A stretch of 64,000 bases of DNA from Patescibacteria group bacterium (lineage in GTDB: Bacteria; Patescibacteriota; Patescibacteriia; JACRDY01). The notes beneath the pieces are model-generated. The model was not told where the DNA came from and did not search any database. It worked only from the letters and a program-made list of their open reading frames with translations. Where the stretch lies: the NCBI GenBank assembly GCA_041671565.1, contig JBAZBH010000005.1, positions 3,083-67,082 of the forward strand, read 5' to 3'. The translations under genes were made by a program, and so were the position numbers. Numbering within the stretch: the stretch's first letter is position 1; each line of letters opens with the position of its first letter. Below, in pieces: positions 8,588 to 26,016 of the stretch.

Positions 8588-8595
8588 AATTATAT

Positions 8596-11500
8596 ATGAA
8601 TGAAGAATTTACTAAAAATTATTTAAATCGGATAATAGAAACCCATAAAAGCGGTCAGGCGACCGAGCATTCTTATCGTCCGGCACTTCAGGAATTGTTT
8701 GAAAAAGTTACGGCTTTAAGAGTTCATAACGAACCAAAACGGAGCGAATACGGCGCGCCGGATTTTGTTTTTGTCAACAAAAAGATTATAGTCGCTTACG
8801 CTGAAGCTAAGGATATTAATGTTTCTCTTAATGAAATAGAAAAGAGCGAGCAAATGATCCGTTATTATGGTTATACTAATATCATTTTAACCAATTCTTT
8901 GGAATTCAGATTTTATAAAAGCGGCCAAAAGTTTTATGAGCCGATAAAAATTGCCGAATTAAAATCAGGAGAAATTATTGCAGTTGAAGAAAATTTTAAG
9001 TTATTAGATGATTCCATAAAAGATTTTATCAGCGAGGCTAATGAGCCGATAAAATCCGGCGCGGTTTTGGCTAAAGTGATGGCGGGTAAGGCCCGCCGTA
9101 TTCGGGATAACATCAAGAAATTTTTAAAAGAAGGCAATACGCCGGCAAATGAAAGCTTGCTGTCCGTGTATAATGTTATTAAAAGATTACTCTTGGCTGA
9201 TTTGGATCATGATAAATTCGCTGATATGTACGCCCAGACGGTGGTTTATGGTTTATTTGTGGCGCGTTATAACGACGATACCCCTGATACTTTTTCCCGC
9301 CAAGAGGCGCGCGATTTGGTGCCGAGGTCAAATCCATTTTTACGCAAATTTTTTGATCATATTGCCGGGGAGGATTTTGACAAACGGATAGAGTTTATTG
9401 TTAGCGAACTTTGCGAGGAATTTATTCATGCCGATGTAAAGGCGATCGTCCACGATTATTATAAAGTGGAAAAGGATGACAGTCGCGACCCGATTATTCA
9501 TTTTTATGAAGATTTCTTGCAGGAGTATGACGCGGCCGAACGCAAAAAAATGGGAGTTTTTTATACTCCGTTGCCGGTGGTGCGGTTTATTGTGCGGGCG
9601 ATTGATGATGTGCTTAAAAAAGAGTTTGGTTTAAAGGGCTTAGCTGATACTTCTAAAGTGGAAATTCAGGGTGTCAGCCAGGGCAAGAAATATAAACAAA
9701 GCGTCCATAAAGTTCAGATACTTGATCCGGCCACTGGCACCGGTACATTCCTTAACGAAGTAATTGAGTATATTGAAAAATCATTCACCGGTCAGAAAGG
9801 CCGTTGGGTCAGTTATGCCCAGGAGGATCTGTTGCCCCGCCTTCACGGGTTTGAAATTATGATGGCCTCATACACCATCGCCCATCTTAAACTTTCCACC
9901 ACGCTTAAGGAGGGCGGAGTGGATATGGGCAAGGGGCGATTAGGCGTGTATTTGACCAATAGCTTAGAAAAAGCTGAAAGCTATGACAATACTCTTTTTG
10001 CCGGTTTGGGATTGGGTCAGGCAATCACCGATGAATCAGTTGCGGCCAATAAAGTCAAAAACGATCTGCCGATAATGGTGATATTAGGAAATCCGCCCTA
10101 TAATGTCAGTTCGCAGAATAAAGGCGAATGGATTGGCGAGTTGATAAAAGATTATAAGAAGGATTTAGGTGAAAGAAAGATTAACTTGGATGACGATTAT
10201 ATTAAATTTATTCGTTTTTCGCAGTATTTAATAGATAAAAACGGTGAAGGAATTATTGGCATGATTACCAATAATTCATACATAGACGGCATTACCCATC
10301 GGCAGATGCGCAAAACCCTTTTAGAGTCATTTGACTGTATTTATGTTTTAGATTTACACGGCAATGCCAAGAAAAAAGAAACCGCGCCCGACGGTGGTGT
10401 CGATCAGAATGTATTTAGTATTATGCAAGGCGTATCTATTACGATTTTTGTCAAAAAAGCCGGCAAGAAAAAAGCCCTCGGCGCGGTTTATCATGCTGAA
10501 TTATTTGGCAAACAAAAGGATAAATATGAGGCGTTGAACAACGCGACTATAGAAAAAATAAAATGGAAGAAGCTTGACTATAAAGAGCCTTATTATTTTT
10601 TTGTACCTAAAGATTTTAGTTCGCAAGAAGATTATGATAATGGTTTCTTAATAACAGATCTTTTTGATATTTATTCAGCTGGGATAAAAACAAAAGTTGA
10701 TGATATAGCAACTGATTTTAGCAGAAATATTTTATTTGACAGAATAAATAAAATTTTAACAAATAAGCCGTCGTTAAAAGAGCTTATTACTCAATATAAT
10801 CTAGGGACAAATACCACATGGGAATACGAAAAGGCGAGCAGGGCAATTTTTGATGAGTCAAAAATAAGAAATTTTTCATATAGGCCATTTGATTATAGAT
10901 TTGTATATTTTGATCACGATTTTTTATCTAGAAGTAGAAAGAAGGTTATGGAACACATCGTGAAGGATAATTTAGCACTATCTTTTATTCACCAAGGAAG
11001 AAATAAGGGAGTAGAAGCTCTAATTACAAAAGAAGTAACTTGTGAAGATTTTATTACAAACCATACTTTTACGGCTCCACTTTATCTTTACGATGGAAAA
11101 ATAAAAATGGGTGCCTCGGGAACTATTGAGGCCGAAAGAGTGCCAAATCTAAATTTGTTGATTGCAAGAAAGATCGCAGAATGCGTTGAGATGGTTTACT
11201 ACCCGGTTGCGGAATATGAAACTATTAAACCAGACAAGCGTCTTACTCCAGAGAACATCTTAGATTATATTTACGCGGTTTTATATTCTCCAAGTTATCG
11301 CGAGAAATATAAGGAGTTTTTGAAGATTGATTTTCCGCGCGTGCCATATCCCAAAGATGAAAAACAGTTTTTTGCGTTGGCTAGATTGGGCGAGGAATTG
11401 CGTCATCTGCATTTATTGGAAAGTCCGAAAGTTGATAATCCTATTACCACTTATCTAATAGCGGGCGATAATTTAGTTGAAAAAGTTAATTATCAAGATG

Positions 11501-11727
11501 GCAAGGTTTATATCAATAAAACCCAGTATTTTGTCGGAGTACCAGAAGAAGTTTGGAATTTTTATATTGGCGGCTATCAGCCGGCGCAAAAATGGCTTAA
11601 AGACCGCAAAGGCAGAAATCTTGCCAGTGAAGATATTGAACATTATCAAAAAATGATTGTTTCTATTTTTGAAACAATAAGAATTATGAAGGAGATTGAT
11701 CAAATTGTTGAAAAAAATAGTAAATAA
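8596..11727 (+). CDS. Type IIL/IIG restriction-modification enzyme, MmeI family (fused PD-ExK endonuclease, N6-adenine methyltransferase and TRD)
   Basis: N-terminal nuclease motif GAPDFVFVNKKIIVAYAEAK (D..E.K), MTase motif I ILDPATGTGTFL, motif IV ILGNPPYNVSS, total 1043 aa. Start taken at the ATG at 8596 because the track start 8521 overlaps mraY. Confidence 0.8.
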   Translation: MNEEFTKNYLNRIIETHKSGQATEHSYRPALQELFEKVTALRVHNEPKRSEYGAPDFVFVNKKIIVAYAEAKDINVSLNEIEKSEQMIRYYGYTNIILTNSLEFRFYKSGQKFYEPIKIAELKSGEIIAVEENFKLLDDSIKDFISEANEPIKSGAVLAKVMAGKARRIRDNIKKFLKEGNTPANESLLSVYNVIKRLLLADLDHDKFADMYAQTVVYGLFVARYNDDTPDTFSRQEARDLVPRSNPFLRKFFDHIAGEDFDKRIEFIVSELCEEFIHADVKAIVHDYYKVEKDDSRDPIIHFYEDFLQEYDAAERKKMGVFYTPLPVVRFIVRAIDDVLKKEFGLKGLADTSKVEIQGVSQGKKYKQSVHKVQILDPATGTGTFLNEVIEYIEKSFTGQKGRWVSYAQEDLLPRLHGFEIMMASYTIAHLKLSTTLKEGGVDMGKGRLGVYLTNSLEKAESYDNTLFAGLGLGQAITDESVAANKVKNDLPIMVILGNPPYNVSSQNKGEWIGELIKDYKKDLGERKINLDDDYIKFIRFSQYLIDKNGEGIIGMITNNSYIDGITHRQMRKTLLESFDCIYVLDLHGNAKKKETAPDGGVDQNVFSIMQGVSITIFVKKAGKKKALGAVYHAELFGKQKDKYEALNNATIEKIKWKKLDYKEPYYFFVPKDFSSQEDYDNGFLITDLFDIYSAGIKTKVDDIATDFSRNILFDRINKILTNKPSLKELITQYNLGTNTTWEYEKASRAIFDESKIRNFSYRPFDYRFVYFDHDFLSRSRKKVMEHIVKDNLALSFIHQGRNKGVEALITKEVTCEDFITNHTFTAPLYLYDGKIKMGASGTIEAERVPNLNLLIARKIAECVEMVYYPVAEYETIKPDKRLTPENILDYIYAVLYSPSYREKYKEFLKIDFPRVPYPKDEKQFFALARLGEELRHLHLLESPKVDNPITTYLIAGDNLVEKVNYQDGKVYINKTQYFVGVPEEVWNFYIGGYQPAQKWLKDRKGRNLASEDIEHYQKMIVSIFETIRIMKEIDQIVEKNSK

Positions 11728-11754
11728 AACCCGTTGACTAAAAAAATTATCTAT

Positions 11755-12147
11755 ATGATAAATAAAAATAGAATGGGCGAAATAAGTTTGATAATAGTTC
11801 TTATAGTTTTTGCTGGGCTATTTTTTTGGGCTAAACAATATTGGATCACCTTTCTAGCCTTGGTCATAACTTTAGTTGGTTGGCGCGTAGAAGATGTTTT
11901 ATATTTTTCTGTTACTAAGGAAGGAATTAAGGTTAAACTATCAGCATTACGGAAAGAATTTGAAACAACATTACGTTCAGATAAATCAATAGACGAAAAA
12001 GTAAAGGCATCGCAAGAATTAATTGATGAGGCCTTTCGCGCGGGCTATCAAATTGCCGGCGGTAAAAAAGTTGTTGGAACAATTAATAATGTAAAAATAT
12101 GGGGAAGCAAGGATGGTAATAAAAATATTCAGTATGATGAAACTTAA
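11755..12147 (+). CDS. hypothetical 2-TM membrane protein in the defence island
   Basis: Track ORF 11734..12147 begins at a TTG inside a TTGACT -35-like box; the first ATG is at 11755 (alternative 11773); 2 TM plus a soluble C-terminal domain; no motif. Confidence 0.35.
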   Translation: MINKNRMGEISLIIVLIVFAGLFFWAKQYWITFLALVITLVGWRVEDVLYFSVTKEGIKVKLSALRKEFETTLRSDKSIDEKVKASQELIDEAFRAGYQIAGGKKVVGTINNVKIWGSKDGNKNIQYDET

Positions 12148-12164
12148 TAAAAATTAATTAATAG

Positions 12165-12248
12165 TTGGTCAGCAAAAAAATAGACGAGGAAGTCTATCAG
12201 CTTTATGGTTTGACCGAGGAGGAGATAAAGGTGGTGGAGGGAAATTAA
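12165..12248 (+). pseudogene. orphan C-terminal fragment of an N6-adenine RM methyltransferase/type IIG enzyme (TaqI_C-like tail ...KKIDEEVYQLYGLTEEEIKVVEGN*)
   Basis: A 27-codon open frame ending in the characteristic ..VYxLYGLTEEEIxxVEG C-terminus of type IIG/gamma-class MTases; a stop sits immediately upstream in frame; the upstream MmeI-like ORF ends ...EIDQIVEKNSK, i.e. at a homologous IDxxV position. Confidence 0.5.
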
Positions 12249-12255
12249 TTGGATA

Positions 12256-12290
12256 AGAAAAGAACGAGTCGCGGTCTCGTTCTTTTATAT
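12256..12290. terminator. bidirectional rho-independent terminator hairpin between convergent genes
   Basis: AAGAACGAG-tcgcggt-CTCGTTCTT followed by TTTT on the plus strand and A-run on the other. Confidence 0.6.
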
Positions 12291-12668
12291 ATCTTGTTTT
12301 TTTAAATATTCTTTTAAACTTCGCGTGTAATCGTTATATTTGTCTTTTTTGCGGTGTCCTTCGTCGCGGAAACCTAACTCTTTTCGTTTTTCTATAAAAT
12401 CAAGATTAATTGCGCATTCAGCCAAATCAAGAAAATAAACTATTCTGTATCCGCCGCTTTTGCCTTTATTGCTATCTGGGTTGGGGATTCCGGCCGACCA
12501 GGCTTCGTAGCGATTTTTTGGCGATCGATAGACGAGTTTTTGACGCGGCAACTCGCAACGGCTCACTGTTGGCGCCCATAGTTTAATAGCATCTCGCACG
12601 GTAATTGAAATCCCATTTTTTTCGCACAGGCGCACAAATTGTTCTCGCTCAATATAAATCCAGGCCAT
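12285..12668 (-). CDS. HigB-2 / RelE-like toxin (PF06296-type) of a type II toxin-antitoxin pair
   Basis: Motif NKGKSGGYRIVYFLD matches the HigB-2 signature KGKGKRGGSRIIYYFLD; 12-nt spacing after the upstream antitoxin stop. Confidence 0.6.
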   Translation of the reverse strand: MAWIYIEREQFVRLCEKNGISITVRDAIKLWAPTVSRCELPRQKLVYRSPKNRYEAWSAGIPNPDSNKGKSGGYRIVYFLDLAECAINLDFIEKRKELGFRDEGHRKKDKYNDYTRSLKEYLKKQDI

Positions 12669-12680
12669 AGATGTGACAAC

Positions 12681-13181
12681 TTACCGAAAAAAATCAATGT
12701 CGCGCGCATAAGCGTAATCAACGACTTCATACGGTTTTGAATAGAACCAAGGCGCTTCAAGGTGCGTTTGGGCAACGATTTTTTCGGTCGGCCAATTTCC
12801 GAATTCGTCACAAATTTGTTTGAGTAATTTTTTTTGATTGACGGAGAAAACAGATTCATCAAAATTTTTTACATCTTTAATCTCAAAACTAATCATTTCG
12901 CCGTCCATATAATTGACTGATTTAGTATCAATTGCTCCTTCAGTTTTAAGTTTAGAAAGAATTTCATCAATTCGTGATGGTACGGGACCATAGCCCTGAT
13001 GTATATACACATCGCCAGTAACTGTTTTTTTATGATCACGAAAATATATAAAATCAAGATAATACAAAAGTTTATTTAGCTTTGTAGCATGTAAATACTG
13101 ATTATTACAGTATTTAATAAAATATAGGACGGCGTTATTGTAAACTCGCTCGTCAATTGCAGGGCAGATAGCTTTGACCAT
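12681..13181 (-). CDS. Panacea-domain (DUF4065, SocA-like) antitoxin
   Basis: KLNKLLYYLDFIYF...IHQGYGPVPSRI matches the Panacea signature (KLxKLLYY ... YGPV). The track gives a TTG start at 13223 that lies inside a TTGACA promoter box; the ATG at 13181 is preferred. Confidence 0.55.
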   Translation of the reverse strand: MVKAICPAIDERVYNNAVLYFIKYCNNQYLHATKLNKLLYYLDFIYFRDHKKTVTGDVYIHQGYGPVPSRIDEILSKLKTEGAIDTKSVNYMDGEMISFEIKDVKNFDESVFSVNQKKLLKQICDEFGNWPTEKIVAQTHLEAPWFYSKPYEVVDYAYARDIDFFR

Positions 13182-13258
13182 ATTGTTATCTGCATAATAA
13201 CATAAATAAGTATTTTTACGCAATTAAATCTTGTCAAGAATTAAGCTGTGTAAAACTT

Positions 13259-13288
13259 ATTGACAAAGCTTTGTTATCGGCGCTATAA
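13259..13288 (+). promoter_or_regulatory. promoter of the lexA-like/mazF operon (TTGACA-18-TATAAT) with an overlapping TTGTCAA...TTGACAA inverted repeat (candidate operator)
   Basis: TTGACA 13259..13264, TATAAT 13283..13288; cTTGTCAAg at about 13230 and TTGACAAa at 13259 form an inverted repeat. Confidence 0.45.
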
Positions 13289-13322
13289 TTGGGTAATAAG
13301 GCAGTACAATAAATAATGATAT

Positions 13323-14069
13323 ATGCATTTAATCCAAGAAAAATTGTTAAATTTAGCTAAAAATAATAATTTAACTGATTTAACATTAAGGAAAATAGGG
13401 GAATTAATCGGCGAACCGAATAGTCCCCAAAAAATAAAGCATCATTTGGATAAATTGATTGCCAAGGGTCTTCTGTTGGTCGGCGCTGACGGCAAGGCGT
13501 TAAAAGTCGCTGCTAGCGGCCTAGATGAAAAATCAAAGTTAGTTTCTTTGCCAATCGTTGGTTCGGCCAATTGCGGCGAGGCGCTGATTTGCGCCGATCA
13601 AATAGTTGAGGGTTACCTAAAAATATCTTTAAAAATTTTGGGTGATCAATTTAAAAATAGGCTAAAGGATCTATTTATTTTGCGCGCGGTGGGGAGCTCA
13701 ATGAATCGGGCAAATGTGAAAGATAAAAGCATCGAAGACGGAGACTTTGTGGTAGTCGAAAAGAATCAAGGAATTCCAGTTAGCGGCGAGTATGTGGTAT
13801 CGATAATTGATAATATGGCGAATATAAAAAAGTTTTTAGTTGATAAAAAAAACAGACAAATTGTTTTAATATCTGAATCAAATTTTAATATCCCTCCGAT
13901 CTATATACATGAGGATGATCTTTCTAATTATTTAGTTTGCGGCAAAGTGGTTGATGTTATCAAAAAACCGGATGAGCTTCTGTTCGCCAGAGACGAATCA
14001 GCCAAAGACATTTTGAAAACTATTGGTCCTATTTCCAGGGAAGACTATAATTATTATGAAAAATTATGA
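13323..14069 (+). CDS. LexA-like repressor (winged-HTH plus S24 self-cleaving peptidase) with a ~45-aa acidic C-terminal extension
   Basis: Aligns over the whole length to LexA: DNA-binding N-terminus, hinge LPIVGSANCGEA (LexA VAAGEP cleavage region), Ser in LRAVGSSMNRANVKD...DGDFVVV, Lys in ANIKKFLV; extra C-terminal tail DELLFARDESAKDILKTIGPISREDYNYYEKL. Confidence 0.8.
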   Translation: MHLIQEKLLNLAKNNNLTDLTLRKIGELIGEPNSPQKIKHHLDKLIAKGLLLVGADGKALKVAASGLDEKSKLVSLPIVGSANCGEALICADQIVEGYLKISLKILGDQFKNRLKDLFILRAVGSSMNRANVKDKSIEDGDFVVVEKNQGIPVSGEYVVSIIDNMANIKKFLVDKKNRQIVLISESNFNIPPIYIHEDDLSNYLVCGKVVDVIKKPDELLFARDESAKDILKTIGPISREDYNYYEKL

Positions 14070-14419
14070 TTAAAAAAGGCGATCTCGAGTTTGGCGATAT
14101 AGTCTGGACGGAGTTTGATCCTAGTGTTGGGCATGAGTATCAAAATAAAAGACCGGCTATAGTTATCCAATCCAATGAACAATTAAATAAATCTAATCTG
14201 GTAACAGTGATGCCGCTTACAACTCAAGCAGGCAATGTTACGGGAGATGATATTATAATTCCAACCGACCAAGATAATAGGTTGAGGGCGGATTCCGTCG
14301 CTAAGGTCTATTGTATAACTTCATTTGATTATAGTCGTTTTTCTAAAAAAATAGGTAAGGTTAATGCCAAATTGATTATTGCCCTGAAGGAGTATTTAAA
14401 AAAGCATTTTGATCTTTGA
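14066..14419 (+). CDS. mazF: MazF/PemK-family endoribonuclease toxin
   Basis: KKGDLEFGDIVWTEFDPSVGHEYQNKRPAIVIQSN matches the MazF/PemK core (GDIv..dFdP..GhEq...RPalVl); ATGA start/stop overlap with the lexA-like gene. Confidence 0.8.
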   Translation: MIKKGDLEFGDIVWTEFDPSVGHEYQNKRPAIVIQSNEQLNKSNLVTVMPLTTQAGNVTGDDIIIPTDQDNRLRADSVAKVYCITSFDYSRFSKKIGKVNAKLIIALKEYLKKHFDL

Positions 14420-14584: not shown

Positions 14585-15979
14585 ATGAATGCTTTGGGCT
14601 TAAAAAATAAAAAAGTTCTAGTGATGGGGCTCGGCCTCCACGGCGGGGGGCTGGGCGTGACCAAGTGGCTAATCAAACAAGGCGCGCGGGTGACGGTGAC
14701 TGACTTGAAAACTAAAGAACAGCTGAAAGCTACCCTCCGAGAACTTAAAAGTCTGCCCATCAAATATGTTTTAGGCCGCCATCAGCCGGCCGATTTTAAA
14801 AATGCCGATTTGGTGATCCAAAATCCCGGTGTGCCGAGCGAATCGCCGTTTTTAAAAATTGCCAATAAAGCCGGCGTGCCAGTGGTAACCGACATGAGTT
14901 TGTTTTTTGAGCGTTGTCCGGCGCCGATTATTGGTATTACCGGCACTAAGGGTAAAACCACCACCACGACTTTAATCGGCAAGATTTTTCAGTCTGCCGG
15001 TAAAAAGCCGATTGTCGCCGGCAATATCCGAGTTTCGCCTTTGGATTTTTTGAATAAAATCAAGAAAAATTCCAGTGTGATTCTGGAGCTGTCGTCTTGG
15101 CAACTGGAAGGCCTCGCGCCGCTTAAAATCAGCCCGCAGATTGCTTTGATTACTAATCTTTCGCCCGATCACCTGAACCGCTATCGGTCACTTGGGGATT
15201 ACATTAAAGCCAAAACCCTCATTTTCAAATTTCAGCAGCCGGAAGACATTTGTATTTTAAACCGCGATAATCAAGCCAGTCGTCAGCTCGCGAAGTTGGT
15301 GCCCAGCCGGCTATTCTGGTTTTCCAAAAAGTATTTTACTAGCGGGAACGGCGGGTTTATTAAAGATGGTTGGCTGCGATTCCGTTCGGGAAATAAAACA
15401 GTTAAAGTGATTAAAACTTCGGCGGTCAAAATTCCCGGGGAACATAATTTAGAAAATATTTTAGCGGCGCTATCGTTGGCGCTAGTGGCCGGTGTTTCAT
15501 TGGCGGCGGTTCGGCAAGCGATAAAGCAGTTTACCGGCGTCAGCGACCGGCTGGAGTTAATTAAAACCGTTAAAGGTGTCAGCTATTATAATGACACGAC
15601 AGCGACCGCGCCGACAGCCGCGATCCAGGCTTTAAAAACTTTGGGCGGGCAAAAGAAAAATATAGTTCTCCTTGCCGGCGGGGCGGACAAGAAATTAGAA
15701 TTTGGCGAATTTGCCCAAGCGATAAAAAAATACGCCAAAGCCGTGGTGCTCTTTCGCGGGTCGGCGAGCGTTAAACTTAAAAAAGAATTGTTAAAATTAA
15801 ACTACTGGGTCATGACGGAAGTCGGGAGTATGCCGGCCGCGGTCAGCGCCGCGCAAAAATTGGCGCGAGCGGGCGAAATTATTTTACTCTCGCCGGGCGC
15901 GGCCAGTTTCGGGCTGTTTATTAATGAGTTTGATCGGGGAGAACAATTCAAAAATATCATTAAAGTATTAAAACATTAA
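14585..15979 (+). CDS. murD: UDP-N-acetylmuramoylalanine--D-glutamate ligase MurD
   Basis: N-terminal VLVMGLGLHGGGLGVTKWL Rossmann, Mur ligase GITGTKGKTTTT P-loop, 464 aa. Confidence 0.9.
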   Translation: MNALGLKNKKVLVMGLGLHGGGLGVTKWLIKQGARVTVTDLKTKEQLKATLRELKSLPIKYVLGRHQPADFKNADLVIQNPGVPSESPFLKIANKAGVPVVTDMSLFFERCPAPIIGITGTKGKTTTTTLIGKIFQSAGKKPIVAGNIRVSPLDFLNKIKKNSSVILELSSWQLEGLAPLKISPQIALITNLSPDHLNRYRSLGDYIKAKTLIFKFQQPEDICILNRDNQASRQLAKLVPSRLFWFSKKYFTSGNGGFIKDGWLRFRSGNKTVKVIKTSAVKIPGEHNLENILAALSLALVAGVSLAAVRQAIKQFTGVSDRLELIKTVKGVSYYNDTTATAPTAAIQALKTLGGQKKNIVLLAGGADKKLEFGEFAQAIKKYAKAVVLFRGSASVKLKKELLKLNYWVMTEVGSMPAAVSAAQKLARAGEIILLSPGAASFGLFINEFDRGEQFKNIIKVLKH

Positions 15980-16036
15980 AACTTGAAAACCAGGTGTGGC
16001 AAATTTGTTTTAATGTTTTAATGTTTTAATGTTTTT

Positions 16037-17143
16037 ATGACTCAACGGGGCCATCAGCCAGACTATTTTCTTATCGGCCTTTTCGCCGGGCTCCTGCTTT
16101 TCGGCTTGGTAATTTTGTCGTCGGCTAGCGCGCCGCTTGGCTATCAGAAATTTCAAGATCCTTATTATTTTATAAAGCACCAGCTCCTGACCGGCCTGTT
16201 GCCCGGTTTGATCCTGTTTGTTTTTTTTAGCCGTTTTCATTACCAAAAATTAAATAAACTCGCCATTTCGTTTTTGATTTTTTCCATTGTTTTACTGATT
16301 TTGGTGTTTATTCCGGGTTTGCAGGCAGAATATGGTTCGGCGCGCAGTTGGTTGAATATTTTTGGCTTTTCCGTCCAGCCGTCGGAAATCGTCAAGCTGA
16401 CATTTTTGATTTATTTGGCCGCCTGGCTGAATAACCGCGGCGAGCAGAAGGTTCAAGATCTCCACTCCAGCTTTGTGCCATTTATTGCGGCATTATCAAT
16501 TATTTCGCTCCTAATAATTTTACAGCCGGATTTGGGCACACTTTCAATTATTATCGTGGCGGCGGTGACGGTTTATTTTGTCGGCGGCGGCAATTTACGC
16601 CATTTGGCGGCGATGGGCGCGGCCGGGTTGGCGGCATTTTTACTGCTGATTAAAATCGCGCCTTACCGCATGAACCGGTTTATTGCTTTTTGGTCTCCGG
16701 GTAAAGACACACAAGATGTGACTTATCATCTGTGGCAGTCGTTGATTGCCATTGGTTCGGGCGGGTTCCTTGGTCTCGGTCTCGGCCACTCGCGGCAAAA
16801 GTTTTCCTATCTGCCGGAAGTGTCCGGCGATTCAATTTTCGCCATCATGGGTGAAGAGCTGGGATTTATTTTTACTTGTTTGTTTATCATTTTAATCATC
16901 ATGCTCGCTTACCGCGGTATCCAGCTCGCCAAGAACGCGCCGGACCGCTTCTCTCGCTTGCTGGTCGTCGGGATTATTGCTACTATCTCGTTTCAGGCGT
17001 TTATCAATATGGCCGGACTGTTGGCGCTGATGCCGATGACCGGCATTCCTTTACCGCTGGTTTCGGCCGGCGGCACGGCAATGATGACGACACTGGCGTC
17101 GGCGGGGATATTGGTGAATATTAGCAGGTTTAGCAAAGTTTAA
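16037..17143 (+). CDS. ftsW: FtsW/RodA/SpoVE family peptidoglycan polymerase
   Basis: 10-TM SEDS protein located between murD and murG (dcw order). Confidence 0.8.
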   Translation: MTQRGHQPDYFLIGLFAGLLLFGLVILSSASAPLGYQKFQDPYYFIKHQLLTGLLPGLILFVFFSRFHYQKLNKLAISFLIFSIVLLILVFIPGLQAEYGSARSWLNIFGFSVQPSEIVKLTFLIYLAAWLNNRGEQKVQDLHSSFVPFIAALSIISLLIILQPDLGTLSIIIVAAVTVYFVGGGNLRHLAAMGAAGLAAFLLLIKIAPYRMNRFIAFWSPGKDTQDVTYHLWQSLIAIGSGGFLGLGLGHSRQKFSYLPEVSGDSIFAIMGEELGFIFTCLFIILIIMLAYRGIQLAKNAPDRFSRLLVVGIIATISFQAFINMAGLLALMPMTGIPLPLVSAGGTAMMTTLASAGILVNISRFSKV

Positions 17144-17149
17144 GGGAGA

Positions 17150-17400
17150 ATCATGAATCAAGAATTAAGAATCAAGAAGGTCGGTAAACGGTGTTTAATC
17201 TTTAAGTCTAGTTAGAATGTCCAATATCCAAATCCCAATGTCCAATCAATGTCCAATGACCAAAGGTGGCTATCCCGAAGCGACCCCGTTGTGGCTTGGA
17301 CATTAGTCATTGGGTCCGCCGAATCGGCGGATGGTCATTGGAGCTTGGACATTGATCATTTATTCTTGATTCATGATTCTTAATTCTTGATTCTATTTTA
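17150..17400. repeat. about 240-nt intergenic imperfect palindrome built from GAATCAAGAAT and CCAATG words
   Basis: atcatgaatcaagaattaagaatcaagaa...tccaatatccaaatcccaatgtccaatcaatgtccaatgacc...ccgccgaatcggcgg...ttcttgattcatgattcttaattcttgattc; the arms are reverse complements. Confidence 0.65.
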
Positions 17401-18497
17401 TGAGAATATTACTGACCGGCGGCGGAACCATGGGCTCAGTCACGCCGCTCCTCGCCACGGCCGAACAATTAAAAACCGATGGCTTAACTGCTGAGTTCCT
17501 TTGGCTGGGGACCAAGGCCGGTCCGGAGCGGGCGGTGGTGGAACTGGCGGGCATCAAATTTCAGCCGATAATCGGTGGCAAATGGCGGCGGTATTTTTCC
17601 CTGCAAAATTTGGCGGCGCCGTTTTTGGTGCTGGCAGGATTTTTCCAAAGTTTAATAATAATTATAAAGTTTAAACCGCAGGTGATTTTAACGGCCGGGG
17701 CGTTTATCTCGGTGCCCGCAGTTTGGGCCGGCCGGTTTTGCCGTGTGCCGGTTTTGGTGCATCAGCAAGATTTAACGCCGGGACTCGCTAACCGGCTAAT
17801 GGCCCCCTTCGCGAGGAAAATCACCGTGGCGCTAGAAGATTCACTGAAAAATTATCCGACGGGCAAGACCAGTTGGATTGGCAATCCGGTGCGAGCGAGT
17901 TTGTTTCAGGGCGATCGGACGGCGGGCTTAAAGAAGTTTAATCTGCAGTCCGGCCGGCCGGTGGTATTAATCGTTGGCGGGGGAACAGGTTCGGTGGTTT
18001 TGAATGAAACAGTTGATCAAGCGTTGCCGGAGTTAGTTGGTTTTTGCCAGGTGATTCATCTAACCGGAATCAAGAATCACCCCAGCAGACGCGGGGCAAG
18101 CGAATTAAGAATCAAGAATCAGGCAGTAAAAGGATATTGTGCCTTTGAATTTTTAACTACGGAAATGAGGGATGCTTTGGCGGCAGCGGATATAGTTGTT
18201 TCTCGGGCAGGTATGGGTTTTTTGAGTGAACTGGCGGCGCTTGGCAAAGCGGTGATTATTGTGCCGATGGCAGACAGCCACCAAGAGGCCAACGCCAGTT
18301 ATTTTGCCCGGCGGAACGCGGCTGTGGTTTTGCCCCAGGCGGATTTGACGCCGGAAAACTTAACTCTAGCCGTTAAAAATCTTTTAGACGGCAAGTCGGA
18401 TAAAGCCAATTTAGAGCGGAATATTAAGTCGTTATTAAAGCCCGGCGCGGCTGAGGCGATGGTTAAGGCGGTGGTGGAGTTGACAAAAGGCCAGTGA
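17400..18497 (+). CDS. murG: UDP-GlcNAc:undecaprenyl-PP-MurNAc-pentapeptide GlcNAc transferase MurG
   Basis: RILLTGGGTMGSVTPLLA N-terminus, GT28 C-terminal domain; contains the in-frame repeat insertion at 18067..18123. Confidence 0.85.
   Translation: MRILLTGGGTMGSVTPLLATAEQLKTDGLTAEFLWLGTKAGPERAVVELAGIKFQPIIGGKWRRYFSLQNLAAPFLVLAGFFQSLIIIIKFKPQVILTAGAFISVPAVWAGRFCRVPVLVHQQDLTPGLANRLMAPFARKITVALEDSLKNYPTGKTSWIGNPVRASLFQGDRTAGLKKFNLQSGRPVVLIVGGGTGSVVLNETVDQALPELVGFCQVIHLTGIKNHPSRRGASELRIKNQAVKGYCAFEFLTTEMRDALAAADIVVSRAGMGFLSELAALGKAVIIVPMADSHQEANASYFARRNAAVVLPQADLTPENLTLAVKNLLDGKSDKANLERNIKSLLKPGAAEAMVKAVVELTKGQ
18067..18123. repeat. about 55-nt repeat element inserted in-frame in murG (core CACCCCAGCAGACGCGGGGCAAGCGAAT flanked by GAATCAAGAATC words)
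   Basis: Near-identical to 55942..55998 inside dnaX and related to 63130..63170 (intergenic); translates in the same frame in both genes (..HPSRRGASE.. / ..HPSIRGASE..). Confidence 0.7.
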
Positions 18498-18598
18498 AAA
18501 TATAGAATAAAGCCGATATTATAACGATTGATATTTGATATTTGTTATTTGGCATTGATTGGTCATTGGGATTTGGACATTTGTCATTTTATTATTTC

Positions 18599-20952: not shown

Positions 20953-20962
20953 AGCTAAAATT

Positions 20963-20993
20963 AAAACCGCGAAAGGATATCTTTCGCGGTTTT
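20963..20993 (+). terminator. rho-independent terminator
   Basis: AAAACCGCGAAAGG-atat-CTTTCGCGGTTTT hairpin directly after the PPIase stop. Confidence 0.65.
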
Positions 20994-21143
20994 AAGATAA
21001 TTGGTTATTTTCATCTGCCATCGCCTTAGTCGATAGTCGGAAACCACGCAGTTTATAATTTTAGCCGGACATCGTTTTAGTTGATGGTTCTATCTTGGCG
21101 AAGTAACTTCTATTTTATTACTATTTTGTTAATCCGTTTGATT

Positions 21144-21386: not shown

Positions 21387-22184
21387 ATGGAAAAAAAATC
21401 AAGGGAAAGGGTGGTTTGGCATTCAGCGATATTCAGTTTAATTCTGTTAATATCGCCGTTTTTGGTTATGGCTGAAGAAGCAGAAACCGCGCCAACGCCG
21501 GCGGCGGAAGTGGAAATTTTCCCGGTTAGCTTAAGCTCTAAAGCGGCGGCGTTAAAGCAGTCAATCGGCCCGGCCAGCGGTTTTCAATTAAGTCTGGGTG
21601 CTAAGACTCTTGGCGCTGAAACAGATATTATCTTCAAAAAGAGGAATATTTTTCCTGAAGAACTAACTTTACCGGACAATAAAGTGGCTCTGAGTCCGCT
21701 CTGGGAATTTGATTTAACCAATAAAAAAGCCTATAACCGCCGCCAGCCTTTGCGCTTGCAGCTAACTTATGAGGCGAGTTTAGCGGCGAAGGGGATTTTT
21801 TTCTGGAACGGCAAAACTTGGCAGGCGCTGCCCAGCCAGATAGTTGACTCAACCAAACGGCTGATCGAAGCGCCGATTTATCTGCCTTACGCTAAAGTAA
21901 TAGTGCTCGGCGACGCGAAGATTATGGGCGAAGGGCAAGCCTCGTGGTATAATTATAAAAAGTGCGACTGCGCCGCTTCACCCGATTATCCCAAAGGCAC
22001 GAAATTAAAAGTGACTAACATCGCGAATGGCAAGTCAGTGGTGGTAAAAGTCAACGACTTCGGTCCGGAGCGGGATATTTTTCCAGCTCGGGCGATTGAT
22101 CTGGATGTGGTGGCTTTTAAGAAAATTGCCAATAAGCGCGCCGGGGTGATCGAGGTGCTGGTGGAGCCGGTGGCGAAGCATTAA
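21387..22184 (+). CDS. RlpA-like double-psi beta-barrel (DPBB) domain protein with signal peptide
   Basis: C-terminal GQASWYNY...GTKLKVTNIANGKSVVVKVNDFGPERDIFPARAIDLDVVAFKKIA resembles the RlpA/expansin DPBB domain; N-terminal signal sequence. Confidence 0.55.
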   Translation: MEKKSRERVVWHSAIFSLILLISPFLVMAEEAETAPTPAAEVEIFPVSLSSKAAALKQSIGPASGFQLSLGAKTLGAETDIIFKKRNIFPEELTLPDNKVALSPLWEFDLTNKKAYNRRQPLRLQLTYEASLAAKGIFFWNGKTWQALPSQIVDSTKRLIEAPIYLPYAKVIVLGDAKIMGEGQASWYNYKKCDCAASPDYPKGTKLKVTNIANGKSVVVKVNDFGPERDIFPARAIDLDVVAFKKIANKRAGVIEVLVEPVAKH

Positions 22185-22270
22185 AACACGAGAACATTAA
22201 AACATTAAAACAAAAAGACACTTTATAGTTAATTGTTTCAATGTTTTAGTATTTTAGTGGCCGAACGAGT

Positions 22271-22951: not shown

Positions 22952-23053
22952 ATCAGCGGTTAAGTCGATAGGTTGTTAGGTAGTTATGACGCCGCCTGCG
23001 GCGGCGTTAAGACCTAACGACCTAACTACTTAACCACCTATCAACCTAACCCT

Positions 23054-24004: not shown

Positions 24005-24175
24005 AGTTAAGTTCAAAGTTCAAAACCCTAAGTTCAAATGCCAGCTTTGCTGGCACCCCGCCATGGCGGGGTGATTGCTAAAGCAATCAAGTTCAAAGAT
24101 CAAAAGGTGCCAGAGTTTTGGCCTTTGAACTTGATTTGAACTTTGAACCTTGGATTTTGAACTTTTTGGTTTTTA
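24005..24175. repeat. intergenic word-palindrome (AAGTTCAAA family)
   Basis: aagttcaaagttcaaaaccctaagttcaaatgcc...ggcctttgaacttgatttgaactttgaaccttggattttgaactt; the central hairpin is gcaccccgccatggcggggtg. Confidence 0.6.
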
Positions 24176-24651: not shown

Positions 24652-26016
24652 ATGAAAATTTCTTTTCATGGCGCGTGCCGGGAGGTAACCGGCTTTTGTT
24701 GTTTGGTGGAGACGGACGCCGCCAAGTTTTTGGTGGACTGCGGCATGTTTCAGGGCGGCAAATTTGCCGAAGAACATAATCTTGATCCTTTTGGTTTTGA
24801 CCCGAAAACGATTGATTTTGTTCTGCTGACCCACGCCCACGCCGACCATTGCGGCCGTTTGCCGCGGCTGTATAAAGAGGGTTTCCACGGCCAGGTTTAC
24901 GCCACCGAGCCGACCAAAGACTTTGCCCGGATTATGCTGCTCGACTCGGCGCGAGTGATATTTTCTGAGGCGCTCGCGGAAAACCGTTTGCCGCTTTACC
25001 TCGCCGAGGATGTGGAGGGCGTGATGGCGCTATTTAAAGAGCAGAATTATCGGGAGCCATTTCAGCCAACAGCCGATATCCGTGTTCAGGCGCGCGATGC
25101 CGGACATATCTTGGGTTCGGCGTTCTTTGAAGTTTGGGTGAAAGAAGGCGGGGTAGAGAAGAAGTTGGTTTTCTCAGGCGACCTCGGTAACCCGCCCCAG
25201 CCGATTGTCCGCGATACCGAATTCGCGGATAGCGCCGACTTGGTTGTCCTGGAGTCAACTTACGGCGGGCGGATCCATGAACCGGCCGAAATGCGCCTCA
25301 AAATGCTCCAAGAAGCGATTACCGAGTCGGTGGGCCGCGGTGGCGTCCTGATGATCCCGGCTTTTGCCCTGGAGCGGACGCAAGAAGTGCTGTATGAACT
25401 GAACCACTTGGTGGAGAATAAACTGGTGCCGCCGGTGCCGATTTTTATTGACAGCCCGCTGGCAATTAAGGCGACGGAAGTTTATAAAAAATATATTAAT
25501 CTTTATGACGCCGAATCGCGCGCTTTGATCTCGGCCGGCGACGACCTTTTTAACTTTCCCGGCATTCACTACACGCCGACGCCGTCCGAGTCCAAGAAAA
25601 TCAACCAGTGGCCGGCGCCCAAAGTCATCCTCGCCGGCAGCGGCATGTTGGTGGGCGGGCGAATCGGTTATCACCTTAAATATAATCTGGGTGATCCGAA
25701 GAACCATTTGCTGATTATCTCCTGGCAACCGCAAGGCGGCCTGGGCCGGCAACTTCTGGAAGGCGCCAAGTCAGTGGTGGTCGCGGGCGAGCGGCTGGCG
25801 GTCAAAGCTAGAGTGTCGGCGATTGGCGCTTATTCCTCGCACGCCGATCAACCCAAACTTCTACACTGGGTTAAAATGATGGCGCAGAAAACACCGCAAA
25901 AGGTGTTTGTCGTCCACGGTGAAGAGAAGCAAAGTTTGATGGTGGCGGATGGGTTGAAGGAGAAGCTGGGGTTGAACGGGGTGGTGCCGGTAGTGGGGGA
26001 GGTATTTGAAATATAG
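24652..26016 (+). CDS. MBL-fold metallo-hydrolase, beta-CASP ribonuclease family (RNase J/CPSF-like)
   Basis: Metallo-beta-lactamase motif HAHADHCG plus a C-terminal beta-CASP-like region with conserved D/H residues (...AYSSHAD...VVHGEE). Confidence 0.65.
   Translation: MKISFHGACREVTGFCCLVETDAAKFLVDCGMFQGGKFAEEHNLDPFGFDPKTIDFVLLTHAHADHCGRLPRLYKEGFHGQVYATEPTKDFARIMLLDSARVIFSEALAENRLPLYLAEDVEGVMALFKEQNYREPFQPTADIRVQARDAGHILGSAFFEVWVKEGGVEKKLVFSGDLGNPPQPIVRDTEFADSADLVVLESTYGGRIHEPAEMRLKMLQEAITESVGRGGVLMIPAFALERTQEVLYELNHLVENKLVPPVPIFIDSPLAIKATEVYKKYINLYDAESRALISAGDDLFNFPGIHYTPTPSESKKINQWPAPKVILAGSGMLVGGRIGYHLKYNLGDPKNHLLIISWQPQGGLGRQLLEGAKSVVVAGERLAVKARVSAIGAYSSHADQPKLLHWVKMMAQKTPQKVFVVHGEEKQSLMVADGLKEKLGLNGVVPVVGEVFEI

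Follow-up and report, generated by a model that had tools for sequence, protein, structure and literature searches.

Mirrored heptamer and octamer arrays form families of palindromic elements in the intergenic spacers of a Patescibacteria genome

The ftsW-murG Spacer and Its Composite Palindrome

The spacer between ftsW and murG in the Patescibacteria group bacterium considered here is occupied along its whole length by a composite palindrome (17144-17399), recognized by folding and by inverted-repeat search. Its minimum free energy is -92.5 kcal/mol, against -57.8 kcal/mol for shuffles (z -8.1), and its lag-7 match is 0.49. The outer left arm (17147-17178) is built of AGAATCA-type heptads followed by AAGGTCGGTAA (alignment A4), and the outer right arm (17363-17394), built of TTCTTGA heptads, stops 5 nt short of the murG ATG at 17400; the two arms are 88% complementary (inverted repeat I19), and the order of the words is unequal between them. 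Enclosed by the outer element is an inner hairpin of CCAATG/AATGTCC words (17213-17352; self-BLAST, alignment A3), for which self-BLAST gives 96.8% identity over 62 nt between 17208 and 59108 (59108-59169) and 90% identity to 41742-41781. Two GC-rich sequences within it are lacking from the sister copies in the 59xxx and 41xxx regions, namely an insertion at the apex (17270-17295), seen as a gap in alignment A3, and the 17-nt palindrome TCCGCCGAATCGGCGGA, inserted in the right arm on the plus strand (17315-17331). An identical copy of TCCGCCGAATCGGCGGA lies at 26085-26101, giving two exact copies where 0.22 matches are expected; an earlier reading made from the sequence only had named it as a common GC core at 17296 and 26085, of which the second position holds and the first is really 17315-17331. 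Homology between the two composites extends to the outer left arm, since alignment A3 pairs 17140-17400 with 59036-59270 through outer arm, linker, and inner hairpin.

Tandem Words of Seven and Eight Nucleotides

Throughout the window, by which is meant the whole 64-kb stretch of DNA analyzed, the spacers between housekeeping genes are mostly taken up by palindromes with word-built arms, mainly where the flanking genes are co-directional or convergent. The non-genic DNA (9,533 bases, 14.9% of the window) contains 24 period-7 and 8 period-8 tandem arrays identified by TRF, where 0.03 and 0.07, respectively (about 0.1 in total), are expected from shuffled spacers; the 54 kb of genes hold merely two of each period, and 32 of the 36 arrays therefore fall outside genes. 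Lag-7 self-match reaches 0.335 in spacers, against 0.259 in genes. The period-7 arrays of spacers comprise 3.3-9.4 copies each, arranged head-to-tail, and most arrays form mirror pairs, the same heptamer occurring on opposite strands of one spacer, which fold into hairpins of 70-260 nt with z from -5 to -12. The complementary arms measure 30-65 nt (inverted-repeat search, I1-I25), and both arms of an element are built from one word family, as tandem 7- or 8-nt words without an internal palindrome. A folding z of -5 or lower was obtained in 19 spacers, against 0 to -2.6 in coding controls. At least ten distinct word families are present, mostly A/T-rich, with no single dominant G-rich heptamer such as GGGAATC, and a count of the "AAG" core common to words revealed no enrichment beyond composition. 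At the gathering score, Rfam 15 returned five tRNAs and nothing else across the whole window. Coding potential of the arrays was rejected because a 7-nt period cannot encode protein, and DNA-uptake-sequence pairs and CRISPR were likewise rejected as the identity of the repeats.

The sequence-only reading had described long palindromes of tandem short words in the spacers, and this was confirmed by TRF, inverted repeats, and folding; its seven word families, each said to be re-used at several loci, were all recovered by self-BLAST. The words, given as 7-10 nt long, do occur in tandem, with a true unit of 7 nt, or 8 in some arrays. Its 9-13-nt words proved to be overlapping read-outs of that unit, AAGTTCAAA, AAGTCAAAAG, ATTTAAGATTT, GTCCGGAGTC, and AAAATTAAAAATT deriving from AAGTTCA, AAGTCAA, AAGATTT, AGTCCGG, and AAAAATT, respectively. 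The claim that all loci are palindromes needed no correction at 18 of the 24 listed; the other six (18530-18595, 29694-29735, 31035-31140, 59040-59075, 61310-61370, and 63100-63180) are one-armed arrays or half elements. Several further members had been missed (3056-3146, 15953-16040, 22179-22262, 22955-23051, 43995-44072, 45355-45425, 62687-62755, and the outer arms of 26014-26254).

Families of Elements and Their Nesting

Within a family, the elements found at different loci are genuine copies in sequence, and an element may contain another element or a small GC palindrome as an insertion. In the CCAATG family, a hairpin of CCAATG/CCAAAT words occupies the hlyD-ABC spacer (41735-41832; I16); from 41742, it is 81.3% identical to 59130-59220 over 91 nt (self-BLAST), and it shows compensatory changes relative to the other CCAATG copies, 6 of 41 pairs being altered on both sides among the three copies (arm co-variation). 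The copy at 59040-59232 (alignment A3, fold, self-BLAST) joins an outer left arm of the AAGATTT family (59040-59079), which overlaps the pfkB stop codon, to a CCAATG-word hairpin (59113-59232) and has no outer right arm. A T-rich half element of ATATTTG and CATTGG words on the plus strand (18528-18595; TRF), with no matching left arm, stops 3 nt before tRNA-Lys and is 89-92% identical to arms of the 17xxx, 41xxx, and 59xxx copies; at its position, the relative L006 carries a full CCAATG-word hairpin.

The outer AAGATTT family comprises five copies with a common 60-nt left end, each hosting a different inner hairpin (A4). In the composite at 29694-29905 (fold, A4, self-BLAST), the outer left arm (29694-29735) begins at a stop codon and is followed by an inner AAGTTCA hairpin (29745-29881). 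The composite of the L31/prfA spacer (35824-36047; I20, z -8.6, fold, A4, A5) consists of AAGATTT-family arms on the outside, a stem of GGCCGGTA / TTACCGAC, and, innermost, a hairpin of ACATAAC words (35895-35968), of which a copy stands in the 2987-3489 spacer (3056-3146; fold, TRF 3116-3146) at 86.7% identity over 75 nt (self-BLAST). The dnaJ-dnaX spacer holds an AAGATTT-family hairpin that begins at the dnaJ stop codon and has 42-nt arms, 93% complementary (54629-54793; I8, z -8.7, fold).

AAGTTCA words also build a hairpin with three small GC-rich interior hairpins (24005-24175; fold, self-BLAST), which ends approximately 15 nt before tRNA-Gln and is 92.3% identical to 29748-29799 and 85-86% identical to 26102-26185. 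The latter segment belongs to a composite between a beta-CASP RNase gene and the convergent gyrB (26014-26254; I12, z -10.7, fold, self-BLAST), in which outer arms of AGCTGTA heptads (26014-26051 and 26217-26254, 89% complementary, I12) surround an inner AAGTTCA hairpin (26070-26190) containing the second TCCGCCGAATCGGCGGA; AAGCTGT/AAGCTAT words, as in these outer arms, form a hairpin of their own at 45355-45425 (fold). AAGTCAA words make up the hairpin of the spacer that separates the minus-strand genes prfA and prmC (34602-34791; I3, fold); its 57-nt arms are 79% complementary, and its left end falls approximately 7 nt short of the prmC start codon, on the upstream side. Such words also occur on the plus strand in one-armed form, following AATTAAT words from the rodA stop codon onward (31029-31113; TRF), where z is -0.8 and there is hence no hairpin, and following AATTACG words, as AAGTCAA-type words, within the final ~20 codons of an acs-like ORF of 734 residues whose Pfam domain reaches residue 715 (61311-61363; TRF; 86.8% identical to 31033-31085 by self-BLAST). 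A one-armed plus-strand array of AATTAAA heptads (5521-5563; TRF 5524-5559), beginning 2 nt past the stop of a NifU-like ORF (5244-5519), is 97.1% identical to 31029-31063.

The GTCCGGA-word hairpin directly 3' of the cysteine desulfurase stop codon at 6810 (6808-6899; z -9.8) has arms 6808-6832 and 6870-6894 that are 96% complementary, and it aligns whole with 47899-48005 (I10, A7) and with L131 4296-4371. The 47899 copy alone bears a 24-nt GC palindrome at its apex (47940-47963), an insertion relative to the other two (A7). Between convergent genes, an AATTTTT/AAAAATT-word hairpin (33536-33690; I2, fold) has a terminator-like apex, AACGCCGG-ATTA-CCGGCGTT then TTTAAAA, and from 33547 is 81.8% identical over 143 nt to 56492-56634 (self-BLAST), part of a hairpin of the same words that fills the dnaX-tRNA-Gln spacer (56484-56639; I1, fold), with 65-nt arms, 80% complementary, and a last base 1 nt before the tRNA. 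An AAAATNN-word hairpin with 52-nt arms, 85% complementary, lies in the ABC-macB spacer (42573-42733; I4, fold), and a GGTAACC/GGTAATC-word hairpin lies between convergent ORFs (62687-62755; fold, lag-7 match 0.42). TACGAAT words form a hairpin with GC-rich internal hairpins in the corA-pfkB spacer (57875-58046; z -8.2, fold, TRF); part of it (57890-57950) is homologous to direct, unmirrored TACGAAT/TGCGAAT words around a small GC hairpin on the plus strand (63100-63180; sequence, fold).

Octamers behave similarly. AACATTAA is found in a one-armed plus-strand array that runs from the nifU_N stop to the next start codon (4259-4299; TRF; 94.6% identical to 22179-22215 and 91.9% to 16040-16004 by self-BLAST), in a hairpin of the murD-ftsW spacer (15953-16040; I17, I24, fold, TRF 16006-16039) whose left arm covers the final 22 nt of murD and whose right-arm array enters the ftsW start codon (16037), and in a hairpin of the DPBB-ftsE spacer (22179-22262; TRF, fold, family links by self-BLAST). 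The ftsE-ftsX spacer contains a hairpin of 8-nt GGTTAGGT / ACCTAACC words (22955-23051; z -9.2, lag-8 match 0.53, fold) with a GC-rich apex, GACGCCGCC...GGCGGCGT, ending 2 nt before the ftsX ATG; its segment 23012-23048 is 86% identical, in reverse complement, to a one-armed plus-strand array of 8-nt TAGGAGGT words that adjoins the L31 start in the divergent L31-APH spacer (36429-36467; TRF, z 0.1). AAAGTTAT words form a hairpin in the macB-macB2 spacer (43995-44072; I18, 93%; z -7.5) and, with AATGGTTT words, one-armed plus-strand arrays with no mirror arm that adjoin the gyrB start codon in the divergent gyrB-hyp spacer (28420-28500; TRF 28470-28500, fold).

Independent Assemblies and Related Genomes

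An independent ENA contig (L130) differs from window positions 31853-48988, which include approximately 12 hairpin spacers, by one mismatch and no indels, and in a Logan contig (L005), murG and portions of the elements on either side of it are exact matches, the murG-upstream end of the contig falling inside a hairpin arm. The hairpin palindromes are not an assembly artefact, because independent assemblies reproduce the sequence. With 0 indels over 17 kb between two assemblies of one population, unit number is unchanged over what is a very short timescale, and whole words separate the copies of a family, as they do orthologous spacers of relatives. A protein scan of genome contigs gave a single MurG, 31% identical and from Chitinophagales, and exact look-ups of the MurG, FtsE, and RF1 of the window matched no record; the relatives were reached by way of protein homologues and the contigs encoding them. 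In these relatives, like spacers hold shorter word-hairpins, with gain, loss, and word turnover, and spacers of 8-60 nt occur at corresponding junctions. Between L004 and L009, which are 75-78% identical at the nucleotide level, a GC terminator is almost unchanged, and orthologous spacers have different words, or an element present in one and absent in the other. A hairpin occurs just upstream of tRNA-Lys in four genomes (L002, L006, and L007 included), and the murD-ftsW-spacer hairpin is present in two. Members of three families turn up in other genomes too, at loci that are not orthologous: the GTCCGGA element lies in the macB-macB2 spacer of L131 and here in the iscS and hrcA-upstream spacers; AAGTCAAAATTCAAAAGGCAAAAGT at 31069-31093 is identical at 25 of 25 positions to L131 2972-2996; and 43995-44072, of the AAAGTTAT family, is 93.5% identical to L004 3759-3789.

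More distant material was also searched. A (TCATTGG)17 array was retrieved in contig L024, and of 120 loci found in a metagenome scan for phased CCAAW heptads, 88 are ciliate telomeres (CCCCAAT or CCCCAAA), leaving approximately 30 that are informative. A scan of viral contigs gave no match for the 25-mer or a 23-nt inverted repeat, and matches to the AGTCC pattern were at about chance level, the exception being a single GC-rich contig in which mirrored AGTCCTG arrays are numerous. The "systematic architecture" proposed earlier is borne out, in that most co-directional and convergent spacers are occupied and shorter versions exist in related Patescibacteria; its description as unusual is tempered by the mirrored heptamer arrays described in Xanthomonas (PMC4692102) and by those that turned up in our scans of unrelated contigs, both metagenomic and viral.

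Gene Context, RNA Signals, and Mobilizing Enzymes

An SD-like motif was found in just 3 of 60 ORFs. At about ten genes, a word array ends 0-8 nt before the start (16037, 17400, and 23054; 33752, 34780, and 36094 on the minus strand; gyrB, and others), and left arms lie at or over stop codons at 17144, 29694, 54629, 59040, and 15957, such that folded domains reach from a stop codon to the next start codon. As a rule, the 5' arm is rich in A and the 3' arm in T. All three plus-strand tRNAs have a hairpin before them, and the four divergent spacers are without mirrored hairpins (z -1.1, -3.7, 0.1, and -4.7).

A consensus promoter/terminator scan did not single out the elements. An intrinsic-terminator pattern, taken as a GC-rich stem of 5-15 bp with a U-tract directly behind it, is present at a few apexes or neighboring positions, namely 33615-33634 followed by TTTTAAAA, 26255-26290 (gyrB), and 20961-20995, and a GC stem with U-tract is absent at 17315, 22990, 24040, and 24056 and in all-A/T hairpins. 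Mismatches in the arms carry no significant strand-specific RNA signature (G:U sense 15 versus antisense 11, with 53 other mismatches), and a looser G:U test for RNA-level selection (26 versus 14) was likewise not significant. By Pfam, no transposase, recombinase, RAYT, or integrase is encoded in the 64-kb window; neither Pfam nor tblastn with the Y1 transposase of the relative L004 detected a Y1_Tnp there, and the ends of that transposase, the sole one seen, are unrelated to any repeat family. No target-site duplications or flanking direct repeats were visible by eye in alignments A3-A5 and A7, and no sharply defined element termini were found.

Comparison With Known Repeat Systems

Taken as a whole, the elements look like a rich variant of the heptamer repeats known from Xanthomonas, cyanobacteria, and Beggiatoa. 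In some bacteria, heptamer repeats occur commonly between genes, and how they arise and persist is poorly understood. The STRR of cyanobacteria are tandem heptanucleotide repeats comparable to the present arrays, and tandem heptanucleotides are cited for Calothrix PCC 7601. Classical STRRs and long repeats have been described as one-armed direct arrays, whereas those reported here are mostly mirrored and form families of discrete elements. Heptamers are the commonest unit of bacterial long repeats, for which polymerase slippage has been proposed (Mrazek, 2007, as relayed in PMC4679880); those repeats share with the present arrays the 7-nt unit, a strong intergenic bias, and sporadic lineage-specific blooms (Mrazek et al., 2007, as relayed in PMC4679880 and PMC4692102).

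In form, the elements resemble repeats of Xanthomonas campestris and X. citri, whose genomes contain 70-75 cases each of paired convergent GGGAATC heptamers (Rehm et al., 2015, PMC4692102), with array length varying among related genomes, type and position mostly kept, and function unknown. In both systems, tandem heptamers are intergenic and near-by arrays on opposite strands can form stem-loops. The Xanthomonas pairs use one G-rich, G-quadruplex-candidate word in contrast to the A/T-rich families, at least ten in number, found here, and no nesting, linker-sharing inter-locus copy families, or stop-to-start filling of spacers has been reported for them. In marine Beggiatoaceae, TAACTGA arrays lie a few nucleotides upstream of the starts of genes without ribosome-binding sites, housekeeping genes among them, and S1, Csp, and CsrA have been proposed as binders (MacGregor, 2015, PMC4679880). 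Start-proximal heptamer arrays at such genes are a feature of both systems; TAACTGA is however a single heptamer and nearly always direct (one indirect repeat is reported), whereas the upstream array here is usually one arm of a palindrome, and no TAACTGA dimer occurs in the window, even at two mismatches.

Among mobile repeats, REPINs (Bertels and Rainey, 2011, PMC3116915) are hairpin-forming REP doublets that RAYT transposases mobilize. They resemble the present elements as non-autonomous intergenic hairpins in several multi-copy families, with conserved co-varying arms and one-armed singlets. Each REP arm is, however, a single imperfect palindrome of 20-40 nt with a conserved 5' tetranucleotide instead of tandem words, and a cognate RAYT flanked by REPs, which is defining for REPINs, is lacking within the window. 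Bacterial MITEs and the SDR of Nostoc, which are nested repeats of very small size reportedly described by Elhai et al. in 2008, compare with these elements in their terminal inverted repeats, size of 60-260 nt, intergenic location, nesting, and the placing of small palindromes in heptamer-rich hairpins. Unlike MITEs, the present elements show neither target-site duplication nor parent IS, and their termini are repeated words instead of a unique inverted repeat. Intrinsic bidirectional terminators, with an A-rich 5' flank, GC stem, and T-rich 3' flank at gene 3' ends, are matched at some apexes but differ from the mostly A/T stems of 30-65 bp seen here, which have no free U-tract, lie inside operons, and adjoin start codons. 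Integron attC sites are imperfect palindromes 3' of cassettes, with R/L core sites and an integrase, of which only the palindromes 3' of ORFs have a counterpart here.

Origin and Possible Function

The chances seem to us about evenly balanced that these are families of small non-autonomous palindromic intergenic repeats that spread by copy-and-paste and have heptamer or octamer microsatellites as arms. Word number would alter by replication slippage, with a 7-nt preference like that proposed for long simple-sequence repeats across bacteria, arm complementarity would be kept by foldback-templated correction or by selection for foldback, and copy-and-paste, driven by an enzyme whose gene lies elsewhere or by recombination, would carry whole elements from spacer to spacer. 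They may be tolerated because foldback leaves stop and next start codons adjacent in a compact, Shine-Dalgarno-less genome, a self-folding insert barely disturbing expression; partial termination, 3'-end protection, or processing by the hairpin in the transcript would be a putative secondary consequence. Of the three roles suggested by the sequence-only reading, a self-propagating repeat system is the best supported, by the copies, the nesting, and the non-orthologous loci, and against it stands the want of a mobilizing enzyme or target-site duplication. Copy-and-paste is also opposed by the lack of a transposase, recombinase, or RAYT in 64 kb and of sharp termini, and zero indels in approximately 12 elements imply that slippage is not fast on a very short timescale. 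The hairpins kept near tRNA-Lys in four genomes and at murD-ftsW in two could equally mean function, their absence from four divergent spacers fits a role at gene 3' ends, and 25/25 identity where RF1 is 69% identical implies constraint or recent transfer, unlike pure neutrality. Another reading is that of functional RNA hairpins, acting as bidirectional terminators, operon insulators, RNase III sites, or 3'-end stabilizers in the manner of REP/BIME in E. coli, the heptad make-up being merely the way such stems grow. This is a possibility that we consider doubtful: the occurrence of strong hairpins where genes run co-directionally or converge, set against none in the four divergent spacers, the A-rich and T-rich arms as in bidirectional terminators, the canonical apex at 33615-33634 before its T-run, the hairpins preceding all three plus-strand tRNAs and tRNA-Lys in L002, L006, and L007, and the co-variation of arms all argue for it, but a U-tract is missing after most apex stems, the sense strand has no G:U excess over A:C mismatches, relatives make do with 8-60-nt spacers at matching junctions, gain and loss are rapid, and the 64-kb window holds no RNase III or Rho gene. 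Many of the hairpins moreover sit inside conserved operons (ftsW-murG, ftsE-ftsX, prfA-prmC, and the macB genes), and with a 3' arm that runs to within 0-8 nt of the start codon, a new promoter could not fit there. The earlier suggestion of termination or attenuation is weakly supported, by the few terminator-like apexes and the divergent spacers without mirrored hairpins, and countered by the general lack of a U-tract, the operon locations, and the absence of G:U strand bias.

It is unlikely, on our assessment, that the elements are translation modules, in which word arrays are landing platforms for a single-strand-binding (S1-/Csp-like) protein replacing Shine-Dalgarno pairing and the palindromes are translational couplers, an idea to which we give an equally low weight. 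The U-rich arrays would bind the protein and the A-rich arm would couple initiation to the terminating ribosome, which, at the upstream stop, would melt the hairpin base and expose the U-rich array by the next start, so that genes 100-260 nt apart would still be translated as a unit; cross-genome word conservation would reflect protein recognition, and the families would have spread as a ready-made initiation signal. The rarity of SD-like motifs, the arrays 0-8 nt before the ATG of about ten genes (one-armed before gyrB and L31 included), the left arms at or over stop codons with folds spanning stop to start, the published Beggiatoaceae parallel (PMC4679880), and the conservation of word sequences across genomes are consistent with this. 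At least ten unrelated word families instead of one motif are not, however, and many genes lack an array, the distance to the start codon ranges from 0 to approximately 50 nt, the same hairpins also stand before tRNAs and between convergent genes, where translation is irrelevant, and stop-start adjacency is trivial for a palindrome in a short spacer. A purely local origin, each spacer having grown its palindrome out of a short ancestral hairpin through slippage and template switching, with likeness between loci as convergence on favored words, is already disfavored and very improbable; it would account for short word-hairpins with drifting words at the same junctions in relatives, for the differing word order of the arms at 17147 and 17363, and for the rise of heptamer arrays in many phyla, but not for inter-locus alignments of 62-143 nt that take in non-repetitive linkers and loops, an identical 17-nt GC palindrome in two different hosts, or whole-element homology at non-orthologous loci in other genomes. 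That the palindromes are recombination sites (integron attC-like or other recombinase targets), as their attC-like position 3' of ORFs and imperfect symmetry might suggest, or artefacts of assembly or amplification, since chimeric amplification can create palindromes, is hardly credible and effectively refuted by synteny and independent assemblies: the elements are flanked not by cassettes but by housekeeping genes in synteny (dcw cluster, dnaK operon, prfA), and identical sequence was obtained independently. The site-specific recombinase sites of the sequence-only reading found no support, there being no recombinase or integrase gene in the window and no conserved core site.

Significance for Patescibacteria

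Whatever their origin, the elements provide an unusually clean case of intergenic heptamer repeats, with many word families, almost all mirrored, and with copies, nesting, and cross-genome conservation, in the setting of a small compact genome that has no Shine-Dalgarno signals and little room for junk. Such repeats may fragment CPR metagenome assemblies, the short-read contig L005 beginning inside an arm; the short-read contig L130 spans approximately 12 hairpins intact, which runs counter to that concern. If the elements are mobile, they would represent a new kind of miniature element in Patescibacteria, and if they are functional, they would be relevant to the way operon expression is terminated, processed, or coupled in these bacteria.

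Word Arrays and Mirrored Hairpins

Tandem word arrays and mirrored hairpins exceed chance in the spacers of this genome. Tandem Repeats Finder returned 79 rows for the window, with period 7 dominant; the 9,533 non-genic bases hold 24 period-7 and 8 period-8 arrays, against 0.03 and 0.07 in shuffled spacers, and the 54 kb of genes just two of each. Spacers match themselves at lag 7 at a rate of 0.335, genes at 0.259, and the signal echoes at lags 14 and 21. The arrays occur as mirror pairs: a search within 400 nt gave 70 inverted repeats with arms of up to 65 nt that are 70–96% complementary, and 19 spacers fold with z scores of −5 or below against shuffles (lowest −12), compared with 0 to −2.6 for coding controls.

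The sequence-only reading had described seven word families re-used at several loci as long inverted repeats, and this observation is confirmed: all seven are real and recur where it placed them, and the palindromes reach beyond a few bases. The tandem units are likewise real, but they measure 7 nt (8 nt in some arrays), the 9–13-nt words being overlapping read-outs; of the 24 loci listed, six have a single arm, about eight elements had been overlooked, and a GC core assigned to 17296 lies at 17315. The accompanying interpretation was partly right.

The entire spacer between ftsW (16037–17143) and murG (17400–18497) is a single composite palindrome, where one had been read at 17150–17400. Outer arms of AGAATCA-type heptads (17147–17178 and 17363–17394; 88% complementary) enclose an inner hairpin of AATGTCC/CCAATG words (17213–17352), which has a GC-rich insert at its apex (17270–17295) and the 17-nt GC palindrome TCCGCCGAATCGGCGGA within its right arm (17315–17331).

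An assembly artefact was considered and rejected, since two other assemblies reproduce parts of the sequence. An independent ENA contig matches window 31853–48988 with one substitution (in prfA) and no indel over about 12 hairpin spacers, and a Logan contig is identical across murG and the element sequence that adjoins it on either side; upstream of murG this contig ends within the outer right arm of the ftsW–murG palindrome, and its other end falls within tRNA-Lys.

Genomic Setting

The window is bacterial chromosome, about 85% genic with mainly plus-strand genes, and includes the dcw genes murD (14585–15979), ftsW, and murG, together with ftsEX, gyrB, rodA, prfA-prmC, an hrcA-grpE-dnaK-dnaJ operon, dnaX, and five tRNAs. 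MurG and RF1 place it in the Patescibacteria, with Falkowbacteria, Buchananbacteria, and similar groups as named neighbours; its RF1 is 100% identical to the NCBI MAG proteins MFA6533864.1 and MFA6993434.1 (68-kb contig). The dcw cluster, unbroken in relatives, is split between mraY and murD by a low-GC island (34–36%; 8521–14419) carrying genes for a Type ISP restriction-modification enzyme, a SocA/Panacea antitoxin, an S24 peptidase-like protein, and a MazF/PemK toxin. Upstream of hrcA lies a CIRCE operator (TTAGCACTC-N9-GAGTGCTAA; 48062–48088), also kept upstream of hrcA in the related contig L131 (810–838), which is ordinary heat-shock regulation. Word arrays run into coding sequence at 61311–61377 and 15957–15979: the last ~20 codons of an acs-like ORF, past its last Pfam domain, are array-encoded, and the last 7 codons of murD belong to a hairpin arm.

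Copies within the Window and among Relatives

Judged by sequence comparison, the families are copies rather than products of convergence. Identity reaches 96.8% between 17208–17269 and 59108–59169, 81.8% between 33547–33688 and 56492–56634, and 81.3% between 41742–41832 and 59130–59220, and many shorter links join other loci. The composite at 17140–17400 can be aligned with 59036–59270 from the outer heptads, across 40 nt of non-repetitive linker, into the inner hairpin. An outer family (AAGATTT...AAGAAGGTCGGTAA) has five copies with a common left end and a different inner hairpin in each; measured against sister copies, the small GC palindromes are inserted sequence. Across three copies of the CCAATG family, both bases have changed in 6 of 41 stem pairs while pairing is preserved, so the arms co-evolve.

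Seven related contigs (L002, L004, L006–L009, and L131; MurG 50–61% or RF1 69% identical) are syntenic with the window and have much shorter spacers, holding miniature versions: short hairpins (50–90 nt) built of 7- or 8-nt words, in spacers between co-directional genes. The hairpin position is often common to several genomes and the words differ. The window and L002 both have a murD–ftsW hairpin; one directly precedes tRNA-Lys in L002, L006, and L007, where the window keeps only the T-rich half (18528–18595); and an L9–pyrG hairpin is present in L004 and L009. The latter two, 75–78% identical in nucleotides, share one nearly unchanged GC-rich terminator, yet their orthologous spacers differ in words or in presence versus absence, indicating that the elements turn over quickly.

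Some copies cross genomes. The GTCCGGA element aligns whole, arms and loop, between window 6808–6899 and 47899–48005 and L131 4296–4371, which occupies a different spacer; AAGTCAAAATTCAAAAGGCAAAAGT is identical at 25 of 25 positions between non-orthologous loci of the window and L131, and the AAAGTTAT family also occurs in L004. Such identity, with RF1 only 69% identical, implies either constraint on sequence or recent spread.

Three inverted-repeat structures lack heptads. A 23-nt perfect inverted repeat, GAGATGGTTACAAAACTATTTCG (32275–32297 and 32427–32449), flanks a 129-nt GC-rich interior and is 100% identical to L131 1828–1850 and 1876–1897, at a different locus despite the same RF1 divergence; it gave no credible Rfam match and no match among viral contigs, and may represent a separate mobile element or a gene for a small RNA. 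Two further long palindromes are a GC-rich one of ~270 nt after dnaK (51381–51650; CTCCCCACACCCC...GGGGTGTGGGGAG) and one of 180 nt upstream of an hlyD-like gene (39877–40055). Downstream of tRNA-Lys in L002 (11290–11370) and L006 (1680–1790), a degenerate second tRNA 3′ half, absent from the window, is split by a GC-rich insert and might be an old integration scar.

Possible Roles and Mobilization

Functional roles for the hairpins are possible, and evidence for one at the RNA level is indirect: the four divergent spacers have no mirrored hairpin, only one-armed arrays abutting start codons; arms are mostly A-rich on the 5′ side and T-rich on the 3′ side; and a few apexes are canonical terminators. 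That the elements are primarily terminators, as in the proposal of termination or attenuation, is less likely: a U-tract is missing from most apexes, conserved operons contain many of the elements, the 3′ arm in many cases stops 0–8 nt before the next ATG, relatives manage without long spacers, and stem mismatches show no sense-strand G:U excess (15 versus 11; 26 versus 14 in a looser test), most being of other types. Translational coupling of neighbouring genes is unlikely, though the context allows it: Shine-Dalgarno-like motifs (GGAG, GAGG, or AGGA at −18 to −4) precede only 3 of 60 window ORFs, folded domains extend from stop codon to start codon, and TAACTGA heptamer arrays of Beggiatoaceae similarly lie just upstream of genes without ribosome-binding sites (PMC4679880). 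The bases just before a start codon are typically TTTT, ATTT, or AATT (e.g., 16037, 17400, 23054, and 49396).

The search for a mobilizing enzyme gave no candidate: Pfam searches found no transposase or recombinase encoded in the window, and target-site duplications were not seen either; the suggestion that the palindromes are recombinase sites gains no support. In L004 (Falkowbacteria, GCA_016214745.1), the ftsW–murG junction, which holds a 256-nt palindrome in the window, is occupied by a Y1 transposase gene of IS200/IS605 type that has hairpin ends of its own (9416–9949). This transposase gave no tblastn match in the window, and the ends of the insertion are unrelated to any element family.

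Relation to Known Repeats

Among the long simple-sequence repeats of bacteria, heptamers are the commonest unit, and polymerase slippage has been proposed as their cause (Mrazek 2007, summarised in PMC4679880, PMC4692102). Xanthomonas genomes carry ~180 GGGAATC arrays, 70–75 of them in convergent pairs able to form stem-loops, of unknown function (PMC4692102). REPINs and MITEs are likewise hairpin-forming, multi-copy, and non-autonomous, but the RAYT and REP core that define the former and the target-site duplication that defines the latter were not found in the window. In a phased CCAAW scan of metagenomes, 88 of 120 hits were short contigs with CCCCAAT or CCCCAAA repeats at both ends, read as telomeres of ciliate nanochromosomes, a confounder of any search for heptamer patterns; in unrelated bacteria (L034, L036, L079, and L085) the scan also gave heptamer arrays that are mirrored or nested. 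A 41-kb GC-rich viral-classed contig (IMGVR_UViG_3300005578_000008) has many mirrored AGTCCTG/AGTGCTG arrays between genes, so the architecture is not confined to Patescibacteria.

No description of such mirrored word-hairpin elements in Patescibacteria was found in the literature. The explanation we favour, with roughly even confidence, is that these are a lineage-wide set of palindromic repeats with heptamer-microsatellite arms that would spread by copy-and-paste, are hypertrophied in this genome, and would be tolerated because they fold back. With their many families and their nesting, they are a new version of a bacterial repeat already known but unexplained.
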